A model generated the notes under the pieces. That model did not search any database. It was given only the letters and a program-made list of their open reading frames with translations, and was not told the origin of the DNA. This document shows, piece by piece, positions 11,074-54,476 of a stretch of 64,000 nucleotides of DNA. The stretch comes from an uncultured Candidatus Saccharibacteria bacterium (GTDB lineage Bacteria; Patescibacteriota; Minisyncoccia; UBA6257; CAYRSR01), in contig CAYRSR010000001.1 in NCBI GenBank assembly GCA_964427275.1, positions 20,394 to 84,393 on the forward strand, written 5' to 3'. Each line of letters starts with the position of its first letter. Positions within the stretch are counted from its first letter, which is position 1. Both the position numbers and the translations under genes were made by a program.

Positions 11074-11083
11074 ATCTTTAAAT

Positions 11084-28539: not shown

Positions 28540-28585
28540 ATATTTTTTACTGTCCTTAGTATAGTAGCCTGTTTTGTCTATTTTG

Positions 28586-29857: not shown

Positions 29858-29946
29858 CAAAGACTTTTTATTAACTAGATTTTAAATTCTTGCGTTTTAA
29901 AATACAATAGCTGAAATGCTAGCAGTAGATATAATCACTTTCAATG

Positions 29947-30993: not shown

Positions 30994-32071
30994 AGTTCTT
31001 TAGAACTTCTATGATTCTTTCACTTGCTTTTCCGCCACCATAAAAGTCAATCCATTTTTTATTGGAAGTATCTCTATTAAAAGCTTTTATGGTCTCTTTT
31101 ACTATGTTTTCTTTTTTATTGCCAACAACCTTATTCCATCCTATTTCTACCAGTTCAACCCATTCTGTTTCATTCCTTGGAATGATACAGGGTGTTCTAA
31201 AAAAATATCCTTCCTTCTGTACACCTCCAGAATCAGTAACTATTACCTTTGCACTACTTTCAAGAACAATCATCTCAAAATAAGAAACTGGTTCTGTGAT
31301 AATTAAGTTTTTAGAAGTTCTATCTATTAAGTTATAATTTTTTAATGCTTTTCTTGTTCTTGGATGAACAGGAAAGAAAACTTTTATATCTGAATTAGCA
31401 ATATCATTCAAAGCATTCCAGATATTTTCTAAATTCTCTTTAATATCTGTATTTTCCGCTCGATGTATTGTAACTAGAATAAATTCTTTAGGTCTGAGAT
31501 TATATTTTGAAAGTATCTTTTTTTTACTAACTTTCCTTTTAACTTCTAAAGCTAGATCGAACATTACATCCCCTACTTTGTAAACACCTTTTGTTATCCC
31601 TTCTTTCTTTAAATTTTCTACTGTCTTATCTGTTGGTGCAAAAAGAATATCCGAACAGTGATCTGTCAAAACCCTGTTTACTTCCTCAGGCATATTCTTG
31701 TTATAACTTCTCAGGCCTGCTTCTATATGAGCAAGAGGAATATGAAGCTTGACAGAAGCCAAAGCTCCTGCCAGAGTTGTATTCGTATCTCCATAAACTA
31801 AAACAAGATCAGGTTTCTCTTTGAATAATACTTTTTCTACTTCTATAAGCATTTTGCCTGTCTGTTTGCCATGAGTTCCGGAACCTACTCCAAGATTATA
31901 ATCGGGTCTTGGTAAGCTTAATTCCTTGAAAAATATGTCAGACATGTTGAAGTCATAATGCTGTCCTGTATGAACAAGAATTTCATTAATACCATTTTTT
32001 CTCAGTTTCCTTGAAATTAAAGCTGCCTTTATAAATTGAGGACGAGCACCAATAATAGATATAACTTTCAT
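30983..32071 (-). CDS. wecB: UDP-N-acetylglucosamine 2-epimerase (non-hydrolysing), WecB/WbpI family
   Basis: IGARPQFIKAA...GQHYD...LVYGDTNTTLAGALA...HIEAGLRSYN signature. Confidence 0.85.
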   Translation of the reverse strand: MKVISIIGARPQFIKAALISRKLRKNGINEILVHTGQHYDFNMSDIFFKELSLPRPDYNLGVGSGTHGKQTGKMLIEVEKVLFKEKPDLVLVYGDTNTTLAGALASVKLHIPLAHIEAGLRSYNKNMPEEVNRVLTDHCSDILFAPTDKTVENLKKEGITKGVYKVGDVMFDLALEVKRKVSKKKILSKYNLRPKEFILVTIHRAENTDIKENLENIWNALNDIANSDIKVFFPVHPRTRKALKNYNLIDRTSKNLIITEPVSYFEMIVLESSAKVIVTDSGGVQKEGYFFRTPCIIPRNETEWVELVEIGWNKVVGNKKENIVKETIKAFNRDTSNKKWIDFYGGGKASERIIEVLKNYGK

Positions 32072-32116
32072 AGTTTTTTATGGATACTTAAAATTTTTTT
32101 CTCTTTTATGACTTGA

Positions 32117-32863
32117 CTACTTCTTGATTTTCATTACAAACTGCTGATATTTTTCAATAACCTCCTGAGGTTTCCCATAAGCCTTAACTTCACCTCTATG
32201 CAACCACAATACCTGTGTAGAAAACTGTTTGATAGCTTCCATATTGTGACTTACCAAAACTACTGTGTGATCCTTACCTAATAACTCTCGAATCTTTGCC
32301 TGGCTTTTTTGACGAAAACTCTGGTCTCCAACACCTAATACTTCGTCAATCAGCAATATATCACATTCCAGATGAGCAGCTATAGCAAATCCAAGTCTAG
32401 CTACCATACCTGATGAATAAGTTTTAACAGGAGTATTAATAAAATCCCCAATTTCGGCAAACTCTACTATCCTTTTATAATACTTCCTAATTTGAGGTAA
32501 GGAAAATCCCATTAGCATTCCAACCAAAAATATGTTCTCACTGCCAGTAAGCTCAGGTTGAAAACCTGCGGTTAAGGAAAGTAATGTTGAAACTCGGCCA
32601 GCTACTTCTATCTTACCTTCATCTGGAACAAATATACCCCCGATCACCCTGAGAAGAGTACTTTTTCCAGCTCCATTTAATCCTATAACTCCCAATGTTT
32701 CACCATTTCTTACAGCAAAGCTTACATTCCGCAAGGCCCAAAATTCTTTAAAAGATTGACGCTTTAAACCCTGCACTACTAACTTTTTTAATGTAGGACG
32801 CTTTTCCAGATGCAGTCTGAACTTTATGCCAATATTATTTGCTTTTATCATTACTTTGCTCAT
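32117..32863 (-). CDS. wzt: polysaccharide ABC exporter ATP-binding protein (Wzt/TagH-like, no C-terminal carbohydrate-binding domain)
   Basis: Walker A GLNGAGKST, ABC signature and Walker B. 248 aa. 4-bp overlap with the upstream permease. Confidence 0.8.
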   Translation of the reverse strand: MSKVMIKANNIGIKFRLHLEKRPTLKKLVVQGLKRQSFKEFWALRNVSFAVRNGETLGVIGLNGAGKSTLLRVIGGIFVPDEGKIEVAGRVSTLLSLTAGFQPELTGSENIFLVGMLMGFSLPQIRKYYKRIVEFAEIGDFINTPVKTYSSGMVARLGFAIAAHLECDILLIDEVLGVGDQSFRQKSQAKIRELLGKDHTVVLVSHNMEAIKQFSTQVLWLHRGEVKAYGKPQEVIEKYQQFVMKIKK

Positions 32864-33648
32864 CTTATATCTTTTGCTAGATAAGATTCCTTACGAGCAA
32901 AAAGAAAAAGACCAAAGCACAAGAATAAAAATCCTGCTCCTAAAGTTATCCAGATATAAAAAGTTGGTGGAATCCCTCGCACCAGTAAATTCTTGTAGGC
33001 ATTAAACAAAGCAGAAAATGGATTCAACATATATATTGGTTGTAGATGTTTTGGAATTCTATCAGCTACCGAATATAATCCCGGTGAAAGATAAAACCAC
33101 ATTCGCAAGCCAAACTGTAATATGTTTTGAAGGTCTCGAAAATATACCCCAAAAATTGCCAATATTAGAGAAAGACCTAGCGTAAAAACAAACTGAATCA
33201 AAACTACCACCGGTAGCCATACAAGATTTATAGTAAAGCGAGCATGAAACATAAAAAGCATGGGTAAGAGAGCAATCAAACTGAATAAATACTTCATAAA
33301 CCCAGTAACTACCTGTTGAGTAGGAAGTATTATTTTTGGAAAAGCTACGGCCTGAATAAGCTTTGCCCTGCTAGTAAGTGAGACAACGGATTGCTGTAAA
33401 GAATAAGTGAACCAGCGCCAGGCAAGTAGAGCAGAAAATAAAAGCACTGGAAACTGAGGACCTCCTCTTTTAAAGATATACTGAACCAGAATTACATATA
33501 CTACCATCATCATCAAAGGATCTAAAATACTCCACAAAAAACCAAAAAACTTGTTTTTGTAGGCAACTTTAAGATCAGACTTTACCAGAAACCAAAGTAG
33601 ATATCTCCAATTCCAAAGTTGTTTTACCGGTTGAAATAAGTTTTTCAT
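32860..33648 (-). CDS. wzm: ABC-2 type polysaccharide exporter permease (Wzm-like)
   Basis: 262 aa with 6 TM helices and the ABC-2 family pattern. Overlaps the stop of the GT4 gene by 4 bp. Confidence 0.8.
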   Translation of the reverse strand: MKNLFQPVKQLWNWRYLLWFLVKSDLKVAYKNKFFGFLWSILDPLMMMVVYVILVQYIFKRGGPQFPVLLFSALLAWRWFTYSLQQSVVSLTSRAKLIQAVAFPKIILPTQQVVTGFMKYLFSLIALLPMLFMFHARFTINLVWLPVVVLIQFVFTLGLSLILAIFGVYFRDLQNILQFGLRMWFYLSPGLYSVADRIPKHLQPIYMLNPFSALFNAYKNLLVRGIPPTFYIWITLGAGFLFLCFGLFLFARKESYLAKDIR

Positions 33649-35231
33649 AAGTTCTTATTTGTCAACTCAGAGTAAACTTTTAAAAGTTTCTTGGATTCGT
33701 TTTCCCAGTTGTAAATCTTAGCTGCTTTTTTTGCATTCTCTTTCATTTGTCGATATCTTTTTGGATTAGATAGAATAAAATCAATAGCTCTGGCAATATC
33801 CTCTGGGTCTTCTGGATTAAAAACTGCGCCAAGTTTATGCCCAAGTACAATCTTTCTTAATTCTGGAAAATCACTTGCAGCTACTGGTAAGCCAGCCATT
33901 AAATATTCAAACATTTTATTTGGAAGCCCGTAGTAATTGTTTAAGCTAACTTTCCGAAAAGGAATTACACCTAAATGTGCTTCTTTTGTAACATAGATTA
34001 GCTTATCAGGGGAAACTGGAGGAAGAAATATTACTTTATCATGTAATTCCTGATCAGTTTCAACAAAACTTTTAAGTTCACTTTCTAGTTTTCCCCAGCC
34101 AATCAATACCAGAATAATTTGTGAAAGAGAAACAAGTTTAATAGCTTTTATTAAATTAAATAAGCCTCGCCCAGGAGCGAATCCTCCTTGATAAATAACT
34201 ACTTTGAACTTATTGCTTACCGGGATAAATTTTCGGTTATAATGCTGTTGTTTGTTTTTTTTAGCAGCAACCGGACAATTCATAACTATAGCCGAAATAT
34301 TTAGGTTATATCTTTTTTCTAGTTGACCTGCAATTGAATGGTTAACTGTAATGATTCTGTCAGATTTACCTATAAGATTTCTTTCTATTATTCGTGCTAG
34401 AAACCTCTCCAGCCAATTTAGGCCAGTCTTTTCTGTATAGAGTTCATGTGAATCATATACCAGTTTTCCTCCTAATTTTTTCTTAGCCCAAAAAGCTATC
34501 GGTAAAGTATTTAAGTCATGAGCATGATAAATATCTGCTGGTTCTTGTTCTATAATCTTAAAACTTCGCTGGTAATAATCTAAAAACGACAAAGGTCTGT
34601 GGAAAATCATTAAAAAATTTCGAAGTAACCCATACAAAAAGAAATAGGTATGTTTTGCTGGATAATAAAATCCCCAGTAGAAAATTTTTTTTATACCTTT
34701 GTAGAAAAAGAAGCAGATACATTTTGCTGGATAATAAAATCCCCAGTAGAAAATTTTTTTTATACCTTTGTAGAAGTAATAACCTAATACTAAAGCCCAG
34801 CCTAAAGATAAAAAGTAACCCGGACAAGTTTTTAAAGATTTTCTAACATACTCTCTAAGTCCTTTTTCTTTAATAACCTGATTAAGTTTCTGAAATATTA
34901 ATCGCAGCTTGCCTACTGCTTTTCTTGTAACTGATTGAACTTTTACCGGTTGACGTTTCAACCGTGAAATAGAGCAATTTAAAAAACTCAAAAATTTTTT
35001 AGTAGAAGAAAGGATTCCTTTTAAGATTTTATAGTGAAGTGGGTTTTTAACCACTCGAATAATCCTAAACCCTTCCCTTTTTTCGTAAGGTTCTGTAGTT
35101 TTATCAAGCACGGCAATAATTCTTACATCGTATCCAGCTTCCGTTAAAGTCTTTGCTTCTTTTAAAACTCTAGCATCATGCTTACAGTTATTATATACAA
35201 ACATGCAGACTTTAATGTTTCTGAATGTCAT
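33645..35231 (-). CDS. GT4-family (group 1) glycosyltransferase
   Basis: C-terminal GT-B motif (GLPNKMFEYLMAGLPVAASDFPELRKIV). 528 aa. Contains an internal 69-bp tandem duplication. Confidence 0.75.
   Translation of the reverse strand: MTFRNIKVCMFVYNNCKHDARVLKEAKTLTEAGYDVRIIAVLDKTTEPYEKREGFRIIRVVKNPLHYKILKGILSSTKKFLSFLNCSISRLKRQPVKVQSVTRKAVGKLRLIFQKLNQVIKEKGLREYVRKSLKTCPGYFLSLGWALVLGYYFYKGIKKIFYWGFYYPAKCICFFFYKGIKKIFYWGFYYPAKHTYFFLYGLLRNFLMIFHRPLSFLDYYQRSFKIIEQEPADIYHAHDLNTLPIAFWAKKKLGGKLVYDSHELYTEKTGLNWLERFLARIIERNLIGKSDRIITVNHSIAGQLEKRYNLNISAIVMNCPVAAKKNKQQHYNRKFIPVSNKFKVVIYQGGFAPGRGLFNLIKAIKLVSLSQIILVLIGWGKLESELKSFVETDQELHDKVIFLPPVSPDKLIYVTKEAHLGVIPFRKVSLNNYYGLPNKMFEYLMAGLPVAASDFPELRKIVLGHKLGAVFNPEDPEDIARAIDFILSNPKRYRQMKENAKKAAKIYNWENESKKLLKVYSELTNKNL
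34653..34790. repeat. in-frame 69-bp tandem duplication (2 copies) inside the GT4 gene
   Basis: TTTTGCTGGATAATAAAATCCCCAGTAGAAAATTTTTTTTATACCTTTGTAGAA... repeated head-to-tail. Encodes FYKGIKKIFYWGFYYPAK(C/H) twice. Confidence 0.7.
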
Positions 35232-35348
35232 TTTTTACAATTAGTAAAACTTTATTTCAGGTTAATTTTCTTGTCAAGTTTTAAAAAATTTCAAAAATCG
35301 CTTGCTTAGAAATTTCTATTAGCCAAGAAATATTAGACTTATCTCTCT

Positions 35349-36614
35349 TTAATTTTCGGTCATCAATGTCTTTCGCAAATATAAAGCAATTACATGACTT
35401 CTCTCAAGCTGTCTTTCTTTAGTTAACTTCTTATTCCACTCATTACATAACCTACTAACTGCATTTTGTTCTGGGTAACCTCCCGGATAAAGATAAATAG
35501 AACATTTCGGGCAAACAGTTGTTGGAGTACGTGCCCAAATACCTCCTAAATGCTGCTTAATCCAAAGAAGAATTCTTACAAACGAGCGACGCTCTCCTCC
35601 AGTATGAAGAATTTTAACCAGTTTGAAATCAGGCTCAAATAAATATTTTAATTTCTTTAACGAGAAACTTCGATGATGATAATTAACATGAAAAATTGTT
35701 TTACAGCGTATACATCGAGCTAAACCCAATGACAATTGTTCTTGCCAAGGAACACTTATTAGTATCCACTTTCGAGCTACCCGCTTAAGCTCCTTTAGCG
35801 TCCGTTCATAAGCAGCTTGAGGAAGATGTTCCAAGAGCTCTGCTGCTAGGACAAGATCGAAGCTTTGGTCTCTAAATGGAAGATTATCTGCAGATCCAAT
35901 TACTGTTTTGGTTTTTACGTATTTTAAAGCAGCCTGGCTTGTGTCTACTCCTATAACTTTATAAGAACTGGCAAGTCGATTAGTAATTCTGCCATCACCA
36001 CATCCTACATCAAGTATTGTTGAAGTACCTTTAGGTATCATAGTAATTGTGTCGTTAATCCGCCTTAATTCTCTCTTATCAAGTTTTTTACCCCAAAGAG
36101 AGGATTGTTCATAATATCCTTCTGCTTTTTTAGATTTAGCTAAAAGAATTATGTCATTATAATCGCGAATAAAATAGCGTCTTTTAAGAATACAAGCTAG
36201 CCATACTAAAAGCATAAGACTCAATGGAAAATGAACATGGTAGTAAACAGCTGGCAGACGAAACGCAGCAAATACCAACAAAAGAGTAGTTAAGAATTTA
36301 TTCAAAATTCCTCCCAACTTACGTATCAGGACAACCACAACTAAATCAGCTTTTTGTAAAAAGAACCTTACAGGTTTAGGAGAGAGTTTAGTTATTTTCC
36401 TGTATTTACCAATCAATGAGGTTGATATTCTATATACTGCTGAAGGAATCCTAACTATTTCAAAACCAGTAATTCTTTCCCGTTTTGGCAAGTTCTTAGC
36501 CCAGAGTCCAATAACTGTTACCCAAAGACCAAACTTAGAAAGAATCCTAGCTTCTTTAATCGTACGTGAGTCATTTACTAAAGTATTACGCGTTACTATA
36601 CAAACTCTGCCCAT
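35349..36614 (-). CDS. fusion protein: GT4-N-terminal-like domain + TM segments + class I SAM-dependent methyltransferase
   Basis: The N-terminus (RVCIVTRNTLVNDSRTIKEARILSKFGLWVTVIGL) parallels the N-terminus of the adjacent GT4. The C-terminal half has methyltransferase motif I LDVGCGDGRIT and post I/II motifs. Confidence 0.65.
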   Translation of the reverse strand: MGRVCIVTRNTLVNDSRTIKEARILSKFGLWVTVIGLWAKNLPKRERITGFEIVRIPSAVYRISTSLIGKYRKITKLSPKPVRFFLQKADLVVVVLIRKLGGILNKFLTTLLLVFAAFRLPAVYYHVHFPLSLMLLVWLACILKRRYFIRDYNDIILLAKSKKAEGYYEQSSLWGKKLDKRELRRINDTITMIPKGTSTILDVGCGDGRITNRLASSYKVIGVDTSQAALKYVKTKTVIGSADNLPFRDQSFDLVLAAELLEHLPQAAYERTLKELKRVARKWILISVPWQEQLSLGLARCIRCKTIFHVNYHHRSFSLKKLKYLFEPDFKLVKILHTGGERRSFVRILLWIKQHLGGIWARTPTTVCPKCSIYLYPGGYPEQNAVSRLCNEWNKKLTKERQLERSHVIALYLRKTLMTEN

Positions 36615-36630
36615 GCTCAACTTTTGTTTG

Positions 36631-38148
36631 TCACCTGCTACTAGCTTCTATCTTATGAAGTAACGCATTCCAATTGTCCGTTAGTAAGAAGGCTCTATGT
36701 TCGTATAACTCTTTCAAAACATACTGGTAATCATAAAATACCAGCTTCTTACCGGAATTCCAGTTTTCGATTGTTTGCATCCATTTGTGCATCCAGAATT
36801 TTAAAGTTTGATACACTTCCTCTGGAAGATCAGCAGAAGCAAGTAGACATACCAAAGCAACCACATGATAAGTATGATAATAATTCTTACCAATACCAAA
36901 CTTGGAAAAGTTAGTTGGATAACCACAGAATAGTTTGTCACGCACTGAGGTAATATGAACTACTGAATAATTACTGAGTTTTTTTGATTGAAGCTTAACA
37001 GTTTCTCCTCCAGCAGGAGTTGTTTGATAGGGATCATATTCACCAACATTAAACTCAACAGAAAAAGGTTTTCCTTCTCCTATTAAATAAGTATCATACC
37101 TTTGACTACAGCTTATCCATATATCAGTCCACCCGGAAGTAGTTTTAATAATTCTATTGTCATAAGATGAACTATCTTCTTTGATAAGTTCAAGCTTAAA
37201 TACTAAGTCATCCAGCTCAGGTAAGCGAGATTTATAAAATACATAAAGATTATCCGGTGGTCCATCAGGATGATAAATTCTAACTCGATAAGGACAAAGA
37301 TCTGAATACAAACTCAAACCAGTTGTCGAATCGTGGAAGGAAGGTAAAACTTGAGCAAGGGTAAAGATATTTTTCCTGAATAGTTCTAATGCTTCTGAAT
37401 CATTATAAAAAGTAGCATATTGATGAAGATAAAGAAGTGCATGAAGCCATCCATTAAGAATAACTTCAGGGGCAGATCGAAAAAGGGGTAGTTCAAGCAG
37501 AAAGCTATCTTTTAAATTTACTCCACCTTGATAATATGGGAAAGCTAATCCAAGATAGGTTTCTCGAGCTAATTCTTTTAAATTTAAGTTGCAACGCCTA
37601 TCTAGATCCACAATGGCTCCAAGAATCTGAGCCTGACCAATTGCACTTGGAGAAATATCAGGTCCAAGGAAACGATTAAGATTAAAATTATCTGGATAGT
37701 ACCATAAAAGACCACCATTAGGTAATCTATATGCTGTTTTCTTTGCTGCTGAAAGATACTTTTTTATTGGTTCATCACAACTAAGACGAGATAAAAATCC
37801 TCCATAAGCCATCGGATGAAAAACATATCTTTCTTTAACATCCTGCCAGTACTTAAAAAAAGGAACATCATTTACCAAAACAATGTTATCTTTAGAAATA
37901 ACCTGTCTATTCTTTTCTTCAGGAGTATAAACACTTGAAATTAACTGAAGTAAGTCCTCTGGAGGTTGAAGATAATTTTTGATGTGTCGTGCTTTGTGAA
38001 AAGCTACTATTAAAGAATTAGGTTCTTGTTTCGATTCTGTAGGCAAAAATGCATCATAAGAAAATAGTAATAGAATTAACAAAAGACAGCTAACCATAAC
38101 TGCTGTATAGATGACTTTACTAATTAGTTTTTTTAATGGAGTTTTCAT
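36631..38148 (-). CDS. secreted protein with D-glucuronyl C5-epimerase-like C-terminal region (tentative)
   Basis: N-terminal signal/TM. The GPDISPSAIGQAQILGAI segment resembles the S-x-MAQG-x-A-x-S core of PF06662. Weak. Confidence 0.35.
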   Translation of the reverse strand: MKTPLKKLISKVIYTAVMVSCLLLILLLFSYDAFLPTESKQEPNSLIVAFHKARHIKNYLQPPEDLLQLISSVYTPEEKNRQVISKDNIVLVNDVPFFKYWQDVKERYVFHPMAYGGFLSRLSCDEPIKKYLSAAKKTAYRLPNGGLLWYYPDNFNLNRFLGPDISPSAIGQAQILGAIVDLDRRCNLNLKELARETYLGLAFPYYQGGVNLKDSFLLELPLFRSAPEVILNGWLHALLYLHQYATFYNDSEALELFRKNIFTLAQVLPSFHDSTTGLSLYSDLCPYRVRIYHPDGPPDNLYVFYKSRLPELDDLVFKLELIKEDSSSYDNRIIKTTSGWTDIWISCSQRYDTYLIGEGKPFSVEFNVGEYDPYQTTPAGGETVKLQSKKLSNYSVVHITSVRDKLFCGYPTNFSKFGIGKNYYHTYHVVALVCLLASADLPEEVYQTLKFWMHKWMQTIENWNSGKKLVFYDYQYVLKELYEHRAFLLTDNWNALLHKIEASSR

Positions 38149-38163
38149 ATCAACTTAAATTCT

Positions 38164-39309
38164 TTATTGTAAACTCTTTATTTCTTCTACCACTTTTTTA
38201 TAAATCTTTTCTTTATAAGCTGGCTCTATTGGCAAGCTTAAAACTTGCTCTGTAACCTCTATGGTATTTTTTAGTTTTCCTAAGCATTTACATCTTTTTT
38301 TAAAAACTTTCATCTTACAAAGAGGTACTGGGTAGTAAACCATTGTTTGTATGCCTTTTCTTTTAAGTTTTTCTTGAATCTTATCTCTTTTTTTATTAAG
38401 TAGTTTCACGGTATATTGATGATAAACATGATAAGCTCTTCTTTGAACCTTGGGTATTTTAATCCAACTTATTCCTCTTAGGTACCTATTGTAGAATCTG
38501 GCTATTTTTCTTCTTTTTTTATTAAACTTATCTATGTATCTTATTTTTGCAAGCAAAACAGCTGCCTGCAAAGTATCAAGACGAGCATTATAACCTATAT
38601 GTTCTGCATCATATTTATCTTTACCCCCATGCTTTCTTAACATTCTTACAATTTCCGCCAGTTTATTATCATTTGTAGTAATCATTCCTCCATCGCCAAA
38701 TCCGCCAAGATTTTTAGAAGGGAAAAAACTGAAACATCCTGCATCGCCAAACGAACCTGTTTGTCTTCCATTCCATTTAGCACCAAAACTTTGAGCACAA
38801 TCTTCTACTATAAACAAATTATTTTTTCTAGCTATCTTTATTATTTCATCCATATTGGATGCCTGACCATAAAGATGAACAGGAAGTATTCCTACCACGT
38901 TACTATCATATTTTTCTAAGGCCAAATTTATCTGCACTGGGTCTATGTTAAAAGTCTCAGGGTTTATGTCTACAAAAAGTGGAGTTGCTCCAGATCTTAA
39001 AATAGCATCTCCGGTAGCAGTAAAGGTAAATGGTGTAGTAATTATTAAATCTTTTTTATTCCAGAACTCAGAATCTCTTTTTTTGATAGCTATAGCTCTT
39101 AAAGCAAGAACTAAAGCATCTGTTCCTGAAGATACACCAACAGCATGTTTTACTTTTATATAGTTAGCAACTTTTTGTTCTAATTCTTTTACTTCAGGGC
39201 CTAATATCCAGCGTTGATGTCTAAGACATTTCTTAATAGCAGAATTAATCTCTTTTTTAATTAACTTATACTGAGCCACCAGATCAAGAAGTTTTATTTC
39301 AATTGCCAT
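38164..39309 (-). CDS. DegT/DnrJ/EryC1/StrS-family sugar aminotransferase (WbpE-like)
   Basis: PLP-dependent fold with family-typical N-terminus (LDLVAQYK...GPEV.ELEQK...[11 protein letters not shown]). Confidence 0.85.
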
Positions 39310-39878
39310 ACTTTGTTTCTCTTTTTTCTGTACTTTCTTTTACAAATTTTACAAATAGCCTTTCCTTTCTTAAATTCTAATTTATTTCCACATTCACAAA
39401 CCCAGCCAATAATTCTTGCAGGTACTCCAGCTACAATTGCATAATCTGGAACATCTTTTGTAACCACAGCTCCAGCTCCAATCATTGCCCATTTACCAAT
39501 TTCAATTCCACAAACAATTGTCGCATTTGCTCCAATCGTAGCTCCTTCTTTCACCAATGTAGGAAACCATTTTCCATATTGAGGATATTTTGATTTAGGA
39601 TATTTAGCTCTTGGGTTTTTATCATTAGTAAAAACTGCTGAAGGTCCTACAAAAACGTAATCTTCTAAGGTTACTAAATCCCAAACATCAACATTAGACT
39701 CAAGTTTTACCCCTTTCCCCAGTTTTGCTTTAGAACTTACCAGACAATTATGCCCGATAACACAATTTTCACCAATTTCTGCACCTTTTAAAATCTGACA
39801 ATTTTGCCAAATTTTCGTCCCTTTTCCAATTTTTGCTCCCTTTTGAATCTCAGCAGTTTTATGTGCCCAATAATTCAT
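39294..39878 (-). CDS. hexapeptide-repeat sugar N-acetyltransferase (WbpD/WlbB-like)
   Basis: Left-handed beta-helix repeats and a C-terminal GVPARIIG... region as in UDP-GlcNAc3NA N-acetyltransferases. Confidence 0.8.
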
Positions 39879-40846
39879 AAATTAATAAGTTTCCCATTTT
39901 TACTCAATGACCTCTGGCAACCTTCTAACACCTTTAATACTTCTAGTGCTTCTTTTCCATCTGTTCTTGGATCTTTTCTTTCCTTGATACATTTCAAAAA
40001 ATGCTTTGCTTCCTCCATTAATGGTTCTTTTTTTGAAATTTTAATCACTTTCCCTTTAGCCTTTATTACTTCCGGATTTTTGTTTTTCCTCCACCTTATC
40101 TTATGGAAATAAATTATAAGCTCATTTTTCACACCATCAAAAACTGCCATTGCCTTTGAGCCAATTATCGACAATTTTTGCTCTTTAAAGGGATTTAGCC
40201 AGGAAACAAAAATGTGAGCTGCTTTTCCTTCTTGAAACTCTAGAGAAGTTAGAGTAATATCGGGAATGTCTTTTTGAAGATATGTCTTTCCAATTGCCCT
40301 AACTTTCTTGGGCATTCCTAAAATATCAAGAATGACTGAAATATCATGAGGAGCAAATGACCATAAAACATTTTCCTCTCTTCTTAACCTACCAAAATTA
40401 AGTCGGTTTGACCAAATATAGCAAATTTTTCCTAATTCCCCTTTCTTTATTATTTCCTTTAACTTTAAAACCGCTGGATGATACAAAAGCAAGTGTCCTA
40501 CCATTAAAATCTTTTTTTTCTTTTCAGTCAATTTTAGTAGTTCTTTACCTTCTTTGACTTTCAGAGCCAGTGGCTTCTCTACAAAAACATCTTTTCCGGA
40601 ATTTAAAGCTAATTTAGCTAACTTATAATGAGTAGCCGAGGGAGTTGAAATCACAACTGCATCAATCTCTCTCTTTTTTAAGACATCTAAAAAATTTGTT
40701 GTTGTTTTAAGCCAAGGAAAGTCTCTTTTTCTCTTCCTTAGAACTTTTTTATCAGAATCACAAATAATCTCTAAAACTCCAAGTTGACTAAAAACCCTAA
40801 CCAAATTCTTTCCCCAGTATCCTGTCCCAATTATTGCTACTTTCAT
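39875..40846 (-). CDS. Gfo/Idh/MocA-family oxidoreductase (WbpB-like)
   Basis: N-terminal Rossmann [14 protein letters not shown]. 323 aa. Confidence 0.8.
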
Positions 40847-40852
40847 AAGTCT

Positions 40853-42169
40853 TTACCACCAAGACACATTTTTGTATTCTCTCGATTTAATAGCATTTCT
40901 GGTATCAACTACCAATTTTGCATTTTTAGCAATTTCATTGTAATCAAATCCTGAGTGATCTGTAAGAATTAAGACCAAATCATACCTTTTTAAAACTTCA
41001 GGAGAATACTTAATTGATTCTAAAATTATTGGTTTCTTTAATCTATGATTTTTAACCTCAAATTTTTTAATGTAAGGGTCAAAATAATCAAGCCTGGCTC
41101 TCTTTCGCAAGAGATCCCATATTACTCGGTGAGCTGCTGATTCTCTTGAATCGGCAATATCTCTCTTATAAGCTACTCCCCAAACCAAAATTTTAGAATC
41201 CTTAACTGGCTTTTTGTTTCTATTTAGAAGAGTAATTACTCTAGTAACTACAAAATGTGGCATTTGTTCATTAATCTGTCCAGCTAATTCAATAAATCGG
41301 GGCCAGAAATTAAATTCTCTAGCACGAAAAGAAAGATAGAATGGATCAACTCCAATACAATGACCGCCACAACGAGGAGAAGGATAAAAAGGCATAAAGC
41401 CAAAAGGCTTTGTTTTTGCCGCCTCAATTACTTCCCAGATATCGATTCCCATTTTGCCACAAAGTAAAGCCAGTTCATTTATCATTGAAATGTTTACCAG
41501 TCGAAAAGTGTTTTCTAAAATTTTGGTCATTTCGGCAGTTTCAGGAAAAGTTAGTGGCATTATTTGAGCTTCAATAAAGCTCTGATAAAATTGAGTAGCA
41601 AGTTTAGTACATTTTCTGGTTATTCCTCCTACTACTCTGGGAATACTTTTTAACTGATATTTTTTGTTTCCTGGATCAAGTCTTTCTGGTGAATAAGCTA
41701 AAAAGAAATCTCTACCAACCTTTAAACCAGTCTTTTGAAGGATTGGTAAAACTACTTCCCTGGTTGTTCCAGGATAAGTGCTACTTTCTAAAATAATAAG
41801 TTGGTGTCTATGTAAATATTTTGCAATTTCTTTTGTAGCTGATTTTATATAGGAAATATCAGGAATTTTGTTTTTATCTAAAGGAGTTGGAACGCAGATT
41901 AAAACAACATCCGATTTTTTTAAACACAGATAATCATTAAAGACTTCTAATCTTTTAGAAGCTATTGCTTTCTTTAAATCTTCTGAAGTCACATCAAAAA
42001 TGTAAGACCTTCCTATATTAATCTGCCTAACTCTTTGATTATTTTTATCTATGCCAAAAACTTTAAAGCCTACCCTGGTTAGTTGAACAACAGTAGGCAA
42101 TCCTACATAACCTAAACCGATAACTGTAACTTTTGCTTTTCTATTTCTAATTAACCTATCCAAGTTCAT
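40853..42169 (-). CDS. UDP-N-acetyl-D-glucosamine/mannosamine 6-dehydrogenase (WbpA/WecC-like nucleotide-sugar dehydrogenase)
   Basis: VTVIGLGYVGLP Rossmann motif and the three-domain UDPGDH architecture. The ATG at 42169 is preferred over the TTG at 42178. Confidence 0.85.
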   Translation of the reverse strand: MNLDRLIRNRKAKVTVIGLGYVGLPTVVQLTRVGFKVFGIDKNNQRVRQINIGRSYIFDVTSEDLKKAIASKRLEVFNDYLCLKKSDVVLICVPTPLDKNKIPDISYIKSATKEIAKYLHRHQLIILESSTYPGTTREVVLPILQKTGLKVGRDFFLAYSPERLDPGNKKYQLKSIPRVVGGITRKCTKLATQFYQSFIEAQIMPLTFPETAEMTKILENTFRLVNISMINELALLCGKMGIDIWEVIEAAKTKPFGFMPFYPSPRCGGHCIGVDPFYLSFRAREFNFWPRFIELAGQINEQMPHFVVTRVITLLNRNKKPVKDSKILVWGVAYKRDIADSRESAAHRVIWDLLRKRARLDYFDPYIKKFEVKNHRLKKPIILESIKYSPEVLKRYDLVLILTDHSGFDYNEIAKNAKLVVDTRNAIKSREYKNVSWW

Positions 42170-42299
42170 AAATTTCAATTTTTCTTTTGATGTTTATGTG
42201 CTTTTCTTATCATCACTTTTAAATATTTTTGATAAATAAACCTACTTGGTGTTCTAAAGGCTAATTTTCCTTTTTTAGCTCTTTTTGACGAGTATTTTT

Positions 42300-43367
42300 T
42301 CATTGTCTGAGTTCTTCAAACCATTGGTGAACCATTTTGAGACCTTCTTTGAGATCAACTTTTGATTGCCAGCCAAGTAATTTTTTAGCCAGAGTTATAT
42401 CAGCTCGAGTATGATAAACATCACCATCTCTTGGTGGTAAATATTGTTTTTTGCCACCAACTAAATCGGCTAGGTAATTTATTGAGTAGGATTTTTCACT
42501 GCTCATGTTAATTACTTCTCCCCCTTTTAGCTTCTCACTTTCCATTGCTTTAATAGTTGCATCAATTGCATCGTCGACATAACAAAATCCTCTGGTCTGC
42601 TTACCATCACCATAAATAGTTAATGGCTTACCTTCAATTTTTTGTTTTAAAAATTTTCCAATTACCAAACTGTATTCGGAATCAAAGTCAATTCTGGGCC
42701 CATATATGTTGAAGTATCGTAAAGAAATAATTGGTGTCCTATAAAGATTGGTAAATAGCTTAGCAAATTGTTCCCCAACTAATTTCTGTAAGCCGTAAGG
42801 ACTAACAGGCTCAGGGGTCATATCTTCTTTGAAAGGTAGTTTTTCTTGATTACCATAAACAGCCGAAGAAGAAGCAAAAACAACTCTCTTTACTCTACTC
42901 TCAGCTGAAGCCTTAAATACACTGATTGTTCCAAGAATATTAACCTTAGAAGTCCTGACAGGATCCTCAACTGAAAGAGGCACTCTTGGAATAGCTGCTA
43001 AATGAAAAACATAATCAACTTTTTGAAAAAGTGGTTTAATCTTATCAAAATTACAAATATCAAGTTCATAAAATTCAGCTTTAGGATTTAAATTCTCCCT
43101 TTTACCAGTGGATAGATCATCAATTACAATTACTTTATAGTTTTCTTTAATTAATCTATCTACTAAATGACTTCCAATAAAACCAGCACCACCAGTAACT
43201 AAGATTGTTTGATGTTTGAGGTTAGATGTTCGATGTTGGAGATTGGAAGTTGGAAGTTGGAGGTTGGAGGTTGGAGGTTGGAAGTTGGAGGTTTGAGGTT
43301 GGAAGTTTGACGTTTGATGTTGGATATTAGATGTTAGATGTTGGAGGTTTGATGTTTGATGTTTCAT
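42300..43367 (-). CDS. NAD-dependent epimerase/dehydratase (UDP-sugar 4-epimerase / UXS-like) with heptamer-repeat-encoded N-terminal tail
   Basis: TGGAGFIGSHL Rossmann motif and YxxxK. The first 54 codons, (H/Q)QTSN(L/F)Q repeats, are encoded by a (AACWTCY)n heptamer tract. Confidence 0.8.
   Translation of the reverse strand: MKHQTSNLQHLTSNIQHQTSNFQPQTSNFQPPTSNLQLPTSNLQHRTSNLKHQTILVTGGAGFIGSHLVDRLIKENYKVIVIDDLSTGKRENLNPKAEFYELDICNFDKIKPLFQKVDYVFHLAAIPRVPLSVEDPVRTSKVNILGTISVFKASAESRVKRVVFASSSAVYGNQEKLPFKEDMTPEPVSPYGLQKLVGEQFAKLFTNLYRTPIISLRYFNIYGPRIDFDSEYSLVIGKFLKQKIEGKPLTIYGDGKQTRGFCYVDDAIDATIKAMESEKLKGGEVINMSSEKSYSINYLADLVGGKKQYLPPRDGDVYHTRADITLAKKLLGWQSKVDLKEGLKMVHQWFEELRQ
43205..43364. 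repeat. tandem heptanucleotide repeat tract, about 23 units of GADGTTD (plus strand), within the 5' coding end of the epimerase gene
   Basis: Read directly: gatgttt gaggtta gatgttc gatgttg gagattg gaagttg gaagttg gaggttg gaggttg gaggttg gaagttg gaggttt gaggttg gaagttt gacgttt gatgttg gatatta gatgtta gatgttg gaggttt gatgttt gatgttt. Confidence 0.85.
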
Positions 43368-43753
43368 TGTTTTTTTAGATATCTTTTTAAACTTAATAAC
43401 TTGAAAAATAATTCATCGATTCTGGTGATGATTTGATTAAAGGTTATTTTAGATATGTATTTTAAATTCTCGGCAATAATACAACAAGCCTTTACCTCTA
43501 TCAAAGAACCTAATGCAATATCCACAAACCTTGCAAATTCTTTCTTGTTTCGCGCACTTCCTTCTGTAATATTCAATATCACTGAAATTGCCGCTCGTTT
43601 CAATTGAGCACCCAAAATGAATGTTTCTTCCTTAGGAAATTTTAAACTAAGATTGTAAATTTCCTTAAGTAATTCATTTGCTAACTTATAAACTTCTAAA
43701 TTTCCAAAATTATACTTCTGATACATAATTCCAACATCCAACATATCCAACAT
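43364..43753 (-). CDS. four-helix-bundle protein (23S rRNA intervening-sequence protein family, TIGR02436-like)
   Basis: 129 aa. YKLANELLKEIYNLSLKFPKEE...QLKRAAISVILNITEGSAR...EFARFVDIALGSLIEV is typical of the family. Confidence 0.7.
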   Translation of the reverse strand: MLDMLDVGIMYQKYNFGNLEVYKLANELLKEIYNLSLKFPKEETFILGAQLKRAAISVILNITEGSARNKKEFARFVDIALGSLIEVKACCIIAENLKYISKITFNQIITRIDELFFKLLSLKRYLKKQ

Positions 43754-43770
43754 CTAACATCTAACATCAT
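43729..43770. repeat. heptamer tract (CCAACAT/ATCTAAC x about 6), inverted orientation relative to 43205-43364
   Basis: ccaacat ccaacat atccaac atctaac atctaac atc spans the start codon of the four-helix-bundle gene and the stop of the upstream YqeY gene. Confidence 0.7.
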
Positions 43771-44276
43771 TTAGCTTTTTTCAGGAGTAAGTCTTTGACT
43801 ATTTTTGCGATTAATTGAGGTTCAGCTTTTCCTTTGAATTTAGACATCATCTCCTTCATTACTTTTCCCATATCAGCTATAGATTTTGCTTTGAGTTTTT
43901 CTATAACTTGCTGGGCTGACTTTTCAATTTCTGTAGCAGAAGCTTGCTTGGGTAAATACTTTTTCAGAATCTCTATCTCGGCCTGTTCTTTTTTAGCTAG
44001 TTCTTCTCTCCCTCCTTTTCGATACAGTTTAATTGAATCAGTTCGCTTTTTTATTTCCGAATAAATCAAGTCAATTATTTCCTGATCAGTTAAACTACTT
44101 TGCTTAGTTAGTTCTGATTCAGTTATTGATTTACTTTGTTTAAGAATTCTTACTCTTTTTTCCTTTTCACGATTTAAAATAGATGTTTTTAAAAGCCTCA
44201 GCACCGAAAGAACTTCGGTTTGTTTATTTTTTAAAGCTAATTTAAAATCCCGTTCAATTTCTTGCTTAAGAGACAT
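43767..44276 (-). CDS. GatB/YqeY domain protein
   Basis: MSLKQEIERDFKLALKNKQTEVLSVLRLLKTSI start is typical of YqeY. The ATG at 44276 is preferred over the GTG at 44306. Confidence 0.7.
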   Translation of the reverse strand: MSLKQEIERDFKLALKNKQTEVLSVLRLLKTSILNREKEKRVRILKQSKSITESELTKQSSLTDQEIIDLIYSEIKKRTDSIKLYRKGGREELAKKEQAEIEILKKYLPKQASATEIEKSAQQVIEKLKAKSIADMGKVMKEMMSKFKGKAEPQLIAKIVKDLLLKKAK

Positions 44277-44281
44277 AATAA

Positions 44282-45277
44282 CTACTTTGTTTTTTCTAAA
44301 TACCACTTTAAAGTTTTTTCTAATCCTTCATCCAGACTGTACTTTGGTTCAAATTCAAGCTCTCTTTTAGCTTTAGAGTAATCTAGAGCAACTCGGCCAA
44401 CCTCACCTCTTTTTTCTGGAACATATATTTTGGCTACATCTATCCTGGTTAACTTTTTAATCTTATCAAATAAGCTATTTATGCTAGTCTCTACACCAGT
44501 CCCAATATTAAATATTCCAGTTTTATCTTTCTTTAAAGCTAAAATTGCAGCATCTATCGCATCGTCTATGTAAATAAAATCTCTAGTTTGAGTTCCATCT
44601 CCAATAATAGTAGGCTGCTCACCAGCTAGCATCTTTTTAAAAAATACCGAAATTACTCCAGCTTCAGCAGAAATTCCCTGTCTTGGTCCATAGACATTTG
44701 AGTAACGCAAGGAAATACTCGGTACCTGATATACTTCGCGATAATAGTCCAAGTACTTTTCTACTGCTAGCTTAGCCACTACACATGGAGCAATAGGTCT
44801 TTCTGGAGAAGTTTCAGGAGTAGGAATGACATCTGCTTCTCCATAAATTGCTCCACCAGTAGAGAAAAATATAAACTTAGAATCAGTAATTTCCACCGGC
44901 AAGAAATGTAAAAAATTTTTTAACACATTTAAAGAGCCCATAATATTTATCCGGGCATCCCAGTCAGGATTATCTAGCGACTTTCTTATATCCACCTGAG
45001 CAGCTAGATGGAACACTGTCTGAGGTCTTTCTTTTTTAAATATTTTGGAAATTTTAGGTGAGCAAATATCTACTTTATAAAAACTTGCTTTTTTGTTCAC
45101 CAGCTCTTTTCTTCCGGTAGAGAGATTATCAATAACTACTACCTTAAAGCCAAGTTCTACTAATCTATCCACCAGATGAGAACCAATAAATCCAGCTCCA
45201 CCAGTAACTAAGATTGTTTGAGGTTTGAGGTTAGACGTTGGATGTTGGATATTAGAGGTTTGATGTTTTTCCAGCAT
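44282..45277 (-). CDS. NAD-dependent epimerase/dehydratase (paralog) with short heptamer-repeat-encoded N-terminus
   Basis: MLEKHQTSNIQHPTSNLKPQT followed by ILVTGGAGFIGSHLVDRL. The ATG at 45277 is preferred over the ORF-track TTG at 45331. Confidence 0.8.
   Translation of the reverse strand: MLEKHQTSNIQHPTSNLKPQTILVTGGAGFIGSHLVDRLVELGFKVVVIDNLSTGRKELVNKKASFYKVDICSPKISKIFKKERPQTVFHLAAQVDIRKSLDNPDWDARINIMGSLNVLKNFLHFLPVEITDSKFIFFSTGGAIYGEADVIPTPETSPERPIAPCVVAKLAVEKYLDYYREVYQVPSISLRYSNVYGPRQGISAEAGVISVFFKKMLAGEQPTIIGDGTQTRDFIYIDDAIDAAILALKKDKTGIFNIGTGVETSINSLFDKIKKLTRIDVAKIYVPEKRGEVGRVALDYSKAKRELEFEPKYSLDEGLEKTLKWYLEKTK
45215..45268. repeat. heptamer tract (about 8 units: gtttgag gtttgag gttagac gttggat gttggat attagag gtttgat) in the 5' coding end of the second epimerase gene
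   Basis: Same unit family and the same adjoining 22-nt sequence (CCACCAGTAACTAAGATTGTTT) as at 43183-43206. Confidence 0.8.
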
Positions 45278-45409
45278 TGAGATGATTATAACATATCTTA
45301 AAAGTAGTTTGCACCACTTGACAAATTGCAAAAATGTTAGTATAATTAGGTCAGCTTAAGGGAATTAACAAAAAAATAAGGTTGGTAGAATTGAAAAAGG
45401 AGGTTCGAA

Positions 45410-53387: not shown

Positions 53388-53902
53388 AAGTTAATAAATT
53401 TAATTTTAAAGTTTTTAAGCACTGCTAAATCCTTTTTTGGTTGCCCAAAGGAGTTTTGTTAGTTTTTAATTGATCCACGGACAGGTTCCCCTACCCGTGC
53501 CTTGTTACGACTTCATCCTGATCACCGAGCTGATTCTAGGTCCTTAAACAGGAACTTCGAACCCTCCCGGCTCTCCTGATGTGACGGGCGGTGAGTACAG
53601 GACTCGAGAACGTATTCACCGCGACATAGCTGATTCGCGATTACTAGCGATTCCGGCTTCATGAGGGCGAATTGCAGCCCTCAATCCGAACTGAGACTAC
53701 TTTTAAGAGATTCGCTCCGCCTTACGGCTTAGCAGCTCTTTATAGTAGCCATTGTAGCATGAGTGCAGCCCAGGGCATCAGAGGGCCATGCTGACTTGGC
53801 GTCATCCCCACCTTCCTCCCCAAAAATTGAGGCAGTTCCGCATGACACATATAACATGCAGTAGGGGTTGCGCTCGTTACCTCACTTAAGAGAACACCTC
53901 AA

Positions 53903-53934
<32 letters not shown>

Positions 53935-54175
53935 CTCCAATGTCCTTGAAGGAAGCCTCACCTTTCGGTAAGGTTTCATTGGAGTGTCAAGCCCTGGTGA
54001 GGTTCTTCGGTTATTGACGAATTAAGCCTCATGCTCCACCGCTTGTGCGAGTCCCCGTCTATTCCTTTGAGTTTTAACCTTGCGGTCGTACTCCCCAGGC
54101 GGTCTGCTTAACGCGTTAGCTACGCCACCCAGAGGGTCGATACTCTAGACAGCAAGCAGACATCGTTTAGGGCCT

Positions 54176-54209
<34 letters not shown>

Positions 54210-54441: not shown

Positions 54442-54476
<35 letters not shown>

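Follow-up and report, generated by a model that had tools for sequence, protein, structure and literature searches.

Within a 64,000-nucleotide stretch of contig CAYRSR010000001.1, assembled from an uncultured Candidatus Saccharibacteria bacterium (hereafter, the window), 17 open reading frames (ORFs) on the minus strand fill a polysaccharide cluster of 17.6 kb (27742-45331), which probably makes UDP-ManNAc3NAcA, the 2-epimer of UDP-2,3-diacetamido-2,3-dideoxy-D-glucuronic acid (hereafter, UDP-GlcNAc3NAcA), for a glycan exported by an ATP-binding cassette (ABC) transporter. A first-pass annotation of the same DNA had proposed the five activities required for a sugar of this type. All five ORFs are indeed present on the minus strand where it placed them, their Pfam families are as claimed (E values of 1e-20 to 1e-114), and profile and PDB comparisons support the five activities, assigning none of the enzymes to an unrelated subfamily. 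Four kinds of observation carry this assignment: the presence of the genes, their family and subfamily placement, the specificity residues of the epimerase and the conserved gene context. The five genes are as follows.

40853-42169, minus strand: WbpA-like UDP-N-acetylhexosamine 6-dehydrogenase, 438 aa from ATG (441 aa from a TTG upstream at 42178)
39875-40846, minus strand: Gfo/Idh/MocA oxidoreductase, putative UDP-GlcNAc(A) 3-dehydrogenase, 323 aa (GFO_IDH_MocA 4.9e-24, plus C-terminal domains)
39294-39878, minus strand: WbpD/WlbB-like left-handed beta-helix 3-amino-sugar N-acetyltransferase, 194 aa (Hexapep 4.4e-25)
38164-39309, minus strand: WbpE-like DegT-family sugar 3-aminotransferase dependent on pyridoxal phosphate (PLP), 381 aa (DegT_DnrJ_EryC1 1.3e-114)
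30983-32071, minus strand: WbpI/WlbD-type UDP-GlcNAc3NAcA 2-epimerase, 362 aa (Epimerase_2 7.6e-111)

The dehydrogenase contains all three UDPG_MGDP_dh Pfam domains (3.9e-48, 1.2e-29 and 1.9e-20). Its gene is separated from that of the Gfo/Idh/MocA oxidoreductase (hereafter, Gfo) by a spacer of 6 nt, the Gfo and acetyltransferase genes overlap by 4 nt, and the acetyltransferase and aminotransferase genes by 16 nt; the four genes are translationally coupled. The epimerase gene is located 6 kb downstream of the other four on the same strand, beyond genes for a 505-aa protein, a methyltransferase-domain protein, a glycosyltransferase of family 4 (GT4) and a Wzm/Wzt ABC exporter. Gene callers applied independently to another assembly of this genome (L004) picked the same five ORFs. 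A scan for promoters and terminators did not delimit the operon: it returned 75 promoter-like sites (69.8 expected) and 17 terminator-like sites (10.3 expected), with the majority being intragenic.

Two reference clusters were used for comparison. One was retrieved by a tblastn search of plasmids and resides on the Pseudomonas frederiksbergensis plasmid L001; the other is a Wbp-type cluster from Deinococcus. The plasmid cluster encodes, in this order, wbpA, Gfo, an acyltransferase, a DegT protein, an epimerase, an ABC permease, an ABC ATPase, a methyltransferase, a hypothetical protein and a glycosyltransferase. It is a genuine Pseudomonas-type Wbp cluster, as shown by the 574 bits that its Gfo obtains against WbpB of P. 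aeruginosa (3OA2); the score to the Thermus thermophilus enzyme (3O9Z) is 298 bits.

The predicted specificity residues of the epimerase provide the strongest single argument for a UDP-ManNAc3NAcA-type pathway. The best PDB match of this protein is the UDP-GlcNAc3NAcA 2-epimerase of T. thermophilus (8SXV; 1.1e-126, 426 bits, 54% identity), which has been characterised both biochemically and structurally (PMC10622841), whereas Escherichia coli WecB (1F6D) yields 173 bits and 36% identity. The Thermus enzyme is fitted to the 3-acetamido group and the 6-carboxylate of its substrate: Trp307 stands in place of an Arg conserved in all UDP-GlcNAc 2-epimerases, Ala18 replaces their Leu/Met, and Tyr96 replaces their His/Gln (PMC10622841). 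The window epimerase carries all three residues (A16, Y93 and W304), and its catalytic and binding residues R10, K15, D95 and E303 are likewise conserved (Thermus Arg12, Lys17, Asp98 and Glu306). The epimerases of the Pseudomonas and Deinococcus Wbp-type clusters, to which it is 52-53% identical, display the same Ala/Tyr/Trp combination, as opposed to Met/His/Arg in E. coli WecB. Although the window epimerase passes the NCBIfam wecB model (TIGR00236), so does the control WbpI-type epimerase. Given the specificity residues and the difference between 426 and 173 bits, the enzyme appears to be of the WbpI/WlbD type rather than a WecB. The three active-site residues cleanly separate WbpI-type from WecB-type epimerases and are useful for annotation.

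The 6-dehydrogenase scores 424 bits on TIGR03026 (cut-off 190) and possesses the GGHC motif with the catalytic Cys271. It is 42% identical (370 bits) to the wbpA product of plasmid L001, a PGAP-named orthologue that served as the reference instead of PAO1 WbpA itself, versus 33% (204 bits) to E. coli WecC. Its homologues on plasmids split into an unnamed group at 40-48% identity and genes labelled wecC or tviB at 32-34%. The best solved relatives of the enzyme, as well as its best NCBIfam equivalog matches, are UDP-ManNAc dehydrogenases. On these models, however, the window dehydrogenase obtains 257-286 bits and the PGAP-named wbpA product 228-230 bits, both below cut-off, compared to 860 bits for a real WecC; on the WecC equivalog NF008286 in particular, the window enzyme reaches 257 bits against a cut-off of 459 and the E. 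coli protein 860. A control search of NCBIfam found no models for WbpA, WbpB or WbpI. Because such sub-threshold scores are shared by a genuine wbpA, the matches to ManNAc dehydrogenases carry no weight, and a WecB/WecC pair, which was our first reading of them, was dropped. The enzyme is best viewed as WbpA-like, and not as a WecC or a generic UDP-glucose dehydrogenase, an alternative at odds with its identity to wbpA, its lower identity to TviB/WecC and an NCBIfam profile that matches that of wbpA.

The acetyltransferase (ACETYLTRANSFERASE) finds its best match of solved structure in WlbB from Bordetella petrii (3MQG; 7.8e-50, 50% identity over 164 aa), and the next PDB matches (4MZU, 7S43 and QdtC) are also 3-amino-sugar N-acetyltransferases. 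It is 44-48% identical to the acetyltransferases of the two reference clusters and 77-81% identical to those encoded in two clusters of the candidate phyla radiation (CPR; L094 and L095), consistent with a WbpD/WlbB-like 3-N-acetyltransferase. The aminotransferase matches 7B0D (2.6e-95, 323 bits; a structure of unstated provenance) and 8E75 (1e-76), followed by the sugar 3-aminotransferases WbpE (3NYU; 8e-74, 252 bits), QdtB (2e-71, 244 bits) and DesV-like 2OGA (8e-71, 242 bits), whereas the 4-aminotransferases ArnB and PseC-type yield only about 115 bits. Its Schiff-base Lys199 lies in an FPSKNLG motif aligned with the equivalent motif of 7B0D, and it is 37-42% identical to the aminotransferases of the reference clusters. 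By sequence, it groups with the sugar 3-aminotransferases, WbpE included, and not with the 4-aminotransferases; the sugar dealt with in PMC8040287 is a different one, a 4-amino sugar. A pathway to a dTDP-6-deoxy-3-acetamido sugar (QdtB/QdtC-like) was considered and rejected: the cluster has no 3,4-ketoisomerase and no RmlA or RmlB-type set, and instead encodes the Gfo, the 6-dehydrogenase and the 2-epimerase.

The 3-dehydrogenase is the enzyme for which the first-pass annotation has to be amended. It had been described as WbpB-type; the role is upheld, descent from WbpB or WlbA is not. The best curated match of the Gfo, in which Pfam domains delineate a Rossmann fold and an alpha/beta C-domain, is the archaeal UDP-GlcNAc 3-dehydrogenase model NF040723 (2.9e-52), although its 178 bits fall below the cut-off of 450; six further members of the same subfamily, including archaeal ones, score 156-181 bits. 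The subfamily is hence a sister of this equivalog, not a member. The inositol dehydrogenase model IolG, representing the alternative that the first-pass annotation had singled out, gives 102 bits (cut-off 355). In a PDB sequence search, GnnA (7BVJ, 8e-19) is the best functionally annotated match and WlbA is weaker (3e-11 and 46 bits to 3Q2K of Bordetella pertussis; 1.6e-9 and 41 bits to 3Q2I of Chromobacterium violaceum), whereas the WbpB structures of P. aeruginosa (3OA2) and T. thermophilus (3O9Z) are absent among the 60 matches listed. BLASTP comparison with the Pseudomonas WbpB orthologue produced nothing at E<=1e-5, and with the WbpB-type enzyme of Deinococcus 32% identity over 71 N-terminal aa only. 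The AlphaFold2 model of the Gfo (pLDDT 92) has GnnA as its top Foldseek match (TM-score 0.86-0.91, 22% identity), with WlbA first appearing at rank 14; the lead of GnnA is small, the fold being common. Residues E90-K91-P92 (EKP), H167 and D168 are invariant across 20 homologues. Since WbpB (Pseudomonas) and WlbA (Bordetella) do not match each other at 1e-10, the window Gfo can be regarded as a third subfamily for the C-3 step, that is, a likely analogue, not an orthologue, of WbpB and WlbA, close to GnnA and the archaeal UDP-GlcNAc 3-dehydrogenases.

Genomic context is a stronger argument than fold for the role of this Gfo in the pathway. The subfamily is represented in at least 594 species-representative genomes of bacteria and archaea. 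Neighbourhoods were fetched for the 80 best loci, each at least 50% identical, which span Paceibacterota, Omnitrophota, Nitrospirota, Deltaproteobacteria/Thermodesulfobacteriota, Chloroflexota, Planctomycetota, Acidobacteriota, Methanobacteriota and a Heimdallarchaeota metagenome-assembled genome (MAG). A WbpD-like acetyltransferase is encoded directly downstream of the Gfo in 74 of the 78 evaluable loci; for a WbpE-like aminotransferase the count is 45 of 65, and a WbpB-type Gfo occurs in none of the 80. Fusions of the Gfo to the left-handed beta-helix acetyltransferase also exist (P0207 and P0239, 504-514 aa). A second Rosetta-stone link within the Gfo-acetyltransferase-aminotransferase trio was noted on contig L007, where a 570-aa fusion of acetyltransferase and DegT aminotransferase (11040-12752) directly follows a window-type Gfo gene; L010 is of the same contig type.

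The cassette can apparently accommodate more than one kind of 3-dehydrogenase. On the CPR contig L095, genes for a dehydrogenase (69% identical) and an acetyltransferase (77% identical) flank one for a WlbA-type enzyme, which scores 234-245 bits against 3Q2K and 3Q2I and shows no similarity to the window Gfo; aminotransferase and epimerase genes come next. Because the same slot holds a WlbA-type enzyme in L095, non-orthologous displacement within a conserved cassette is the apparent explanation. At least three mutually divergent Gfo/Idh/MocA subfamilies thus serve as 3-dehydrogenases in the Wbp/Wlb pathway, and the one most widespread in environmental genomes has no curated model and is mis-named: JGI labels the free-standing Gfo homologues P0123, P0129, P0137, P0148, P0172 and P0233 'UDP-2-acetamido-3-amino-2,3-dideoxy-glucuronate N-acetyltransferase', a name that belongs to the adjacent enzyme, WbpD. 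This error has probably propagated from the Gfo-hexapeptide fusions of 504-514 aa. Archaeal enzymes of the window type are 54-58% identical (L011, L023 and L043 of Methanobacteriota and the Heimdallarchaeota MAG L059), and L011 and L043 retain the full order of dehydrogenase, Gfo, acetyltransferase, aminotransferase and epimerase. Such conservation across domains suggests that the cassette has been horizontally transferred between bacteria and archaea.

From these assignments we infer the catalytic activities, the order of the first two steps and the fate of the sugar. The WbpA-like, NAD-dependent 6-dehydrogenase would first convert UDP-GlcNAc to the uronic acid; the third-subfamily Gfo/Idh/MocA enzyme would then oxidise C-3, the WbpE-like PLP aminotransferase would add the 3-amino group, and the WbpD/WlbB-like hexapeptide acetyltransferase would acetylate it, giving UDP-2,3-diacetamido-2,3-dideoxy-D-glucuronic acid, the C-2 of which would finally be inverted by the WbpI/WlbD-type non-hydrolysing 2-epimerase to yield UDP-ManNAc3NAcA. 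The activated sugar would be handed to the GT4 and GT2 transferases of the cluster, acting on a polyprenyl-phosphate primer supplied by the Bac_transf enzyme, and the finished chain would leave via the Wzm/Wzt ABC transporter.

Several points weigh against this proposal. Among 38 Gfo loci flanked by 5 kb or more in either direction, in which partners were sought within 10 kb, a WbpA-like dehydrogenase was found in five, an epimerase in eight and all five genes in only three (two Methanobacteriota and one Dehalococcoidia). The trio is therefore mostly without a nearby WbpA-like dehydrogenase or epimerase, and because the complete five-gene set is the exception with this type of Gfo, the trio may natively act on UDP-GlcNAc. 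Furthermore, the Gfo subfamily stays below the nearest curated cut-off and is without a close solved relative (22% identity to GnnA); a TviC-like short-chain dehydrogenase/reductase (SDR) encoded beside the dehydrogenase could divert UDP-GlcNAcA to UDP-GalNAcA; and the final residue could, if the methyltransferase or the 505-aa protein tailors it further, be something other than plain ManNAc3NAcA.

The scarcity of nearby dehydrogenases also bears on the order of the two oxidations. The Gfo could instead oxidise C-3 of UDP-GlcNAc, the trio producing UDP-GlcNAc3NAc, with C-6 oxidised last or at an intermediate stage and 2-epimerisation following, so that the same product is reached by a route resembling that suggested for the archaeal MMP0352-type enzyme. 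In line with this route are that scarcity and the finding that the closest curated family, like the closest structure, acts as a 3-dehydrogenase on UDP-GlcNAc rather than on UDP-GlcNAcA, but genomes containing only the trio may encode the dehydrogenase elsewhere. Moreover, the dehydrogenase clade (68-71% identical) also serves clusters that lack the trio, as in L093, where a 68%-identical dehydrogenase is directly followed by an SDR, which implies a common precursor such as UDP-GlcNAc; and the acetyltransferase is 77-81% identical to partners of a WlbA-type dehydrogenase, an enzyme specific for UDP-GlcNAcA in Bordetella. We consider the altered order possible, if unlikely, and for the last two reasons favour, to a moderate degree, the canonical one, in which C-6 is oxidised before C-3. 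Either order should give UDP-GlcNAc3NAcA, the substrate that fits the active site of the epimerase.

The SDR gene directly upstream of the dehydrogenase, with TviC as its best NCBIfam match (175 bits), raises the prospect that these two enzymes, in the manner of TviB/TviC or WbpO/WbpP, make UDP-GalNAcA, while the trio and the epimerase make the non-uronic UDP-ManNAc3NAc. The L093 arrangement of dehydrogenase and SDR in the absence of the trio would agree with such a division of labour. It nonetheless strikes us as improbable: identity of the dehydrogenase to genes labelled tviB does not exceed 32-34%, its gene is coupled to that of the Gfo across the 6-nt spacer, and Ala16 and Tyr93 of the epimerase correspond to residues assigned to adaptation to the C-6 carboxylate (PMC10622841). 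The two uses are also compatible, given that UDP-GlcNAcA could feed both branches. Still less probable is that the epimerase and dehydrogenase form a WecB/WecC-like pair yielding UDP-ManNAcA, as used in enterobacterial common antigen or in linkage units of teichoic acids, with the trio separately making neutral UDP-GlcNAc3NAc, since the UDP-ManNAc dehydrogenase matches and the pass on TIGR00236 are reproduced by genuine wbpA and WbpI-type controls, Ala/Tyr/Trp in the epimerase stand in place of the Leu or Met, His or Gln, and Arg common to all UDP-GlcNAc 2-epimerases, the dehydrogenase is closer to wbpA than to WecC, and the 6-kb distance of the epimerase gene has a counterpart in P. aeruginosa, where wbpI is similarly set apart from wbpA-E.

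The synthesis of UDP-ManNAc3NAcA thus being the preferred reading, the remaining genes of the cluster suggest how the sugar might be used. They are listed below from the first gene of the cluster onwards.

44282-45331, minus strand: GalE-like SDR epimerase/dehydratase, 349 aa, first gene of the cluster (Pfam Epimerase 1.2e-58)
42300-43367, minus strand: TviC/GalE-like SDR, candidate UDP-HexNAc(A) 4-epimerase, 355 aa, directly upstream of the dehydrogenase (Pfam Epimerase 3.3e-65)
36631-38148, minus strand: 505-aa membrane-anchored alpha/alpha-barrel protein (Pfam C5-epim_C 29.3 bits against a gathering threshold of 23.3, residues 207-281)
35349-36620, minus strand: protein with a class I S-adenosylmethionine-dependent methyltransferase domain (about residues 196-330), 423 aa (Methyltransf_11/Methyltransf_25 about 3e-18)
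33645-35231, minus strand: long GT4 glycosyltransferase, candidate uronic-acid transferase, 528 aa (Glycos_transf_1 1.4e-22, Glyco_transf_4 6.9e-15)
32860-33648, minus strand: Wzm/TagG-like ABC-2 permease (ABC2_membrane 1.3e-10)
32117-32863, minus strand: Wzt/TagH-like polysaccharide/teichoic-acid export ATPase, 248 aa, no C-terminal carbohydrate-binding domain
29947-30993, minus strand: GT2 glycosyltransferase, 348 aa (Glycos_transf_2 7.5e-29)
28586-29860, minus strand: initiating polyprenyl-phosphate glycosylphosphotransferase of the WcaJ/exopolysaccharide type, 424 aa (Bac_transf 2.5e-68; TIGR03025 336 bits, cut-off 295.6)
27742-28629, minus strand: Wzz/GNVR-like chain-length-determinant-type protein, 295 aa (Wzz 2.9e-06, GNVR 5.9e-05; transmembrane windows 41-75 and 262-286)

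The initiating transferase, the glycosyltransferases, the Wzm/Wzt pair and the Wzz-like protein, together with the absence of Wzx and Wzy from the cluster (27742-45331), point to an ABC-transporter-dependent glycan. In NCBIfam, the export ATPase matches two TagH models (1.4e-71 and 6.1e-67) as well as galactan Wzt (8e-54), without reaching the cut-off of any of them. Provided that the organism is a monoderm, the product would be a polymer similar to teichuronic acid or to secondary cell-wall polymers; examples of the latter with ManNAc3NAcA are known from Geobacillus stearothermophilus. Relatives in the CPR connect the sugar cassette to other machinery: a Wzx/Wzy-type system in L095 and, in L094 (Parcubacteria DG_74_3-like), where the order of dehydrogenase, Gfo, acetyltransferase and aminotransferase is kept, three genes that follow these four, for an asparagine-synthase-like protein of 518 aa (13819-15375), for a pyruvyl transferase and for a nitroreductase. 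The asparagine-synthase-like protein could be a WbpG-like amidotransferase that makes an acetamidino derivative. Because relatives pair it with Wzx/Wzy or with this enzyme, the cassette can be seen as a mobile module that operates in different assembly systems.

Both SDRs fall below the NCBIfam cut-offs, the first gene product with 171 bits for GalE (cut-off 262) and 165 for dTDP-glucose dehydratase, and the second with 175 bits for TviC, a UDP-GlcNAcA 4-epimerase, and 173 for GalE; the second has a 61%-identical homologue in the L007/L010 cluster. Between the two SDR genes lie one gene encoding a '23S rRNA intervening sequence protein' of the four-helix-bundle kind (PF05635/TIGR02436) and another that is YqeY-like (43364-43753 and 43767-44306, both on the minus strand). 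Two four-helix-bundle genes (929-1381 and 2719-3102) are likewise scattered among the acetyltransferase, aminotransferase and epimerase genes of the Bipolaricaulota locus L091. A 42-aa ORF without a family match was called between the TviC-like SDR and the dehydrogenase (about 42175-42303 of the window, minus strand; 8544-8672 of L004) and may be spurious.

The 505-aa protein, encoded directly downstream of the aminotransferase, has a transmembrane segment at about residues 7-37 and a partial but above-threshold match to the C-terminal domain of D-glucuronyl C5-epimerases (C5-epim_C). Its AlphaFold2 model (pLDDT 92) retrieves weak, alpha/alpha-barrel PDB matches (E~1e-3). The family is small, with only 69 homologue clusters among 5.8 billion proteins, all annotated as hypothetical. 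It recurs in a Rhizobiaceae genome, in Bipolaricaulota and in a further MAG (L090 10001-11434, L091 5266-6708 and L092 10001-11494), three lineages unrelated to each other. In each of these, the homologue is encoded beside a GT4 of about 500 aa and an epimerase with the Tyr/Trp signature, and Wzm/Wzt are found alongside in L091 and L092; the adjoining GT4 enzymes of L091 and L092 are 46-50% identical to the long GT4 of the window and their ABC-2 permeases 57-61% identical. The 505-aa protein is probably a glycan-processing partner of this polymer. We hypothesise that it might be a C5-epimerase; one possibility is that, as a uronate C5-epimerase, it would turn D-ManNAc3NAcA residues into L-GulNAc3NAcA, a conversion to which, to our knowledge, no gene has been assigned. 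The joint proposal that the Gfo constitutes a third, new class of nucleotide-sugar 3-dehydrogenases displacing WbpB/WlbA and that the 505-aa protein modifies the polymer, possibly as a uronate C5-epimerase, seems to us distinctly unlikely to hold in both its parts.

The 423-aa methyltransferase-domain protein has hydrophobic windows in its N-terminal region (residues 102-146), and its homologues are encoded beside ABC transporter genes in plasmid L001 (about 15577-16350, directly after them); others occur in L041 and L049. It is possibly an enzyme that methylates the glycan or terminates its chains. The arrangement recalls the chain-terminating methyltransferases of ABC-transporter-dependent O-antigen systems, yet the Wzt of the window is devoid of a carbohydrate-binding domain.

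The close named homologues of the cluster proteins derive from Paceibacterota, Parcubacteria and Patescibacteria MAGs, which makes the CPR origin assumed in the first-pass annotation plausible. Its description of the pathway as rare, by contrast, does not withstand the breadth of the survey: the Gfo-acetyltransferase-aminotransferase core is present in at least 594 species representatives, and close homologues of the dehydrogenase are abundant in Parcubacteria/Paceibacterota. Among the papers covered by a literature search, none linked the UDP-ManNAc3NAcA pathway to CPR. The cluster is a well-supported, fairly ordinary extension of a well-characterised pathway and does not overturn current understanding. 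The genomes of CPR/Patescibacteria are tiny and the cells are believed to live on those of a host, and for this reason what they display at the surface likely mediates host attachment. The dedication of some 18 kb to a glycan that would be acidic and heavily N-acetylated, made via a five-step nucleotide-sugar pathway, hence provides a concrete, testable candidate for a surface determinant.

Further cell-surface functions are encoded near the glycan cluster (15552-18625 and 19984-23154, both on the minus strand), namely a type IV pilus/type II secretion system ATPase (PilB-like, 572 aa), a platform protein (PilC-like, 402 aa) and a 1056-aa surface protein with PKD and lamin-tail domains; on the CPR contigs L093-L095, giant lamin-tail-domain proteins precede the dehydrogenase clusters. 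The window also harbours a bacterial 16S rRNA gene (53463-55277, minus strand), the match to which spans 1815 nt against a model of 1533 positions, indicating about 280 nt of insertions; a 104-aa ORF (54909-55223) is found inside the 16S region. No 23S or 5S rRNA genes were detected within the 64-kb window, so that the rRNA genes appear to be unlinked.

Among known systems, the WbpA-WbpB-WbpE-WbpD-WbpI pathway for the B-band O5 antigen of P. aeruginosa PAO1 (Westman et al. 2008/2009, summarised in PMC10622841) is the obvious point of comparison. The same five chemical steps would be carried out by the same protein families, with the epimerase encoded apart from the other four genes; relative to the P. 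aeruginosa-type cluster of plasmid L001, all window enzymes but the Gfo are homologous at 37-53% identity, and the layout of ABC permease, ATPase, methyltransferase and glycosyltransferase is shared. The differences concern the 3-dehydrogenase, which is not homologous to WbpB past the Rossmann motif and is predicted to be probably without the alpha-ketoglutarate-coupled ping-pong recycling of NAD seen in WbpB, and the host, a CPR bacterium probably without lipopolysaccharide, the acceptor glycan of which would therefore differ from that of P. aeruginosa. The WlbA-WlbB-WlbC-WlbD system of B. pertussis and C. violaceum represents the same pathway, contributes in WlbB the best solved relative of the acetyltransferase and has a WlbA-type counterpart in the L095 slot, but the similarity of the window Gfo to WlbA is weak (sequence match of 3e-11, rank 14 in Foldseek). 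The five-gene set of T. thermophilus HB27 (WP_011172736-39, WP_148187554) provides the best solved match of the epimerase, 54% identical, with the catalytic Arg/Lys/Asp/Glu and the specificity Ala/Tyr/Trp residues kept; P. aeruginosa WbpI is 55% identical to the Thermus epimerase (Table 1 of PMC10622841), about the same as the window enzyme. The Thermus 3-dehydrogenase, however, is WbpB-type (3O9Z).

GnnA/GnnB of Acidithiobacillus ferrooxidans, which make UDP-GlcNAc3N for lipid A, likewise perform 3-oxidation followed by transamination, and GnnA is the best structural match of the window Gfo; yet the identity is 22%, the amine in the window pathway would be N-acetylated by the WlbB-like enzyme, and the genes belong to a polysaccharide cluster, not to lipid A synthesis. 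In Methanococcus maripaludis, MMP0350-MMP0353 and MMP0357 are responsible for GlcNAc3NAcA/ManNAc3NAmA of the archaellin N-glycan, with MMP0352 being a UDP-GlcNAc 3-dehydrogenase (EC 1.1.1.374) that starts from UDP-GlcNAc. This is a Wbp-equivalent pathway that, like that of the window, employs a Gfo-family 3-dehydrogenase other than WbpB, and the archaeal model NF040723 is the best curated match of the window Gfo, although the window subfamily, its archaeal members included, scores 156-181 bits against the cut-off of 450. Archaea are also represented by the Methanobacteriota loci L011 and L043, in which genes for the dehydrogenase, a Gfo of the window type (54-58% identity), the acetyltransferase, the aminotransferase and the epimerase follow one another in this order.

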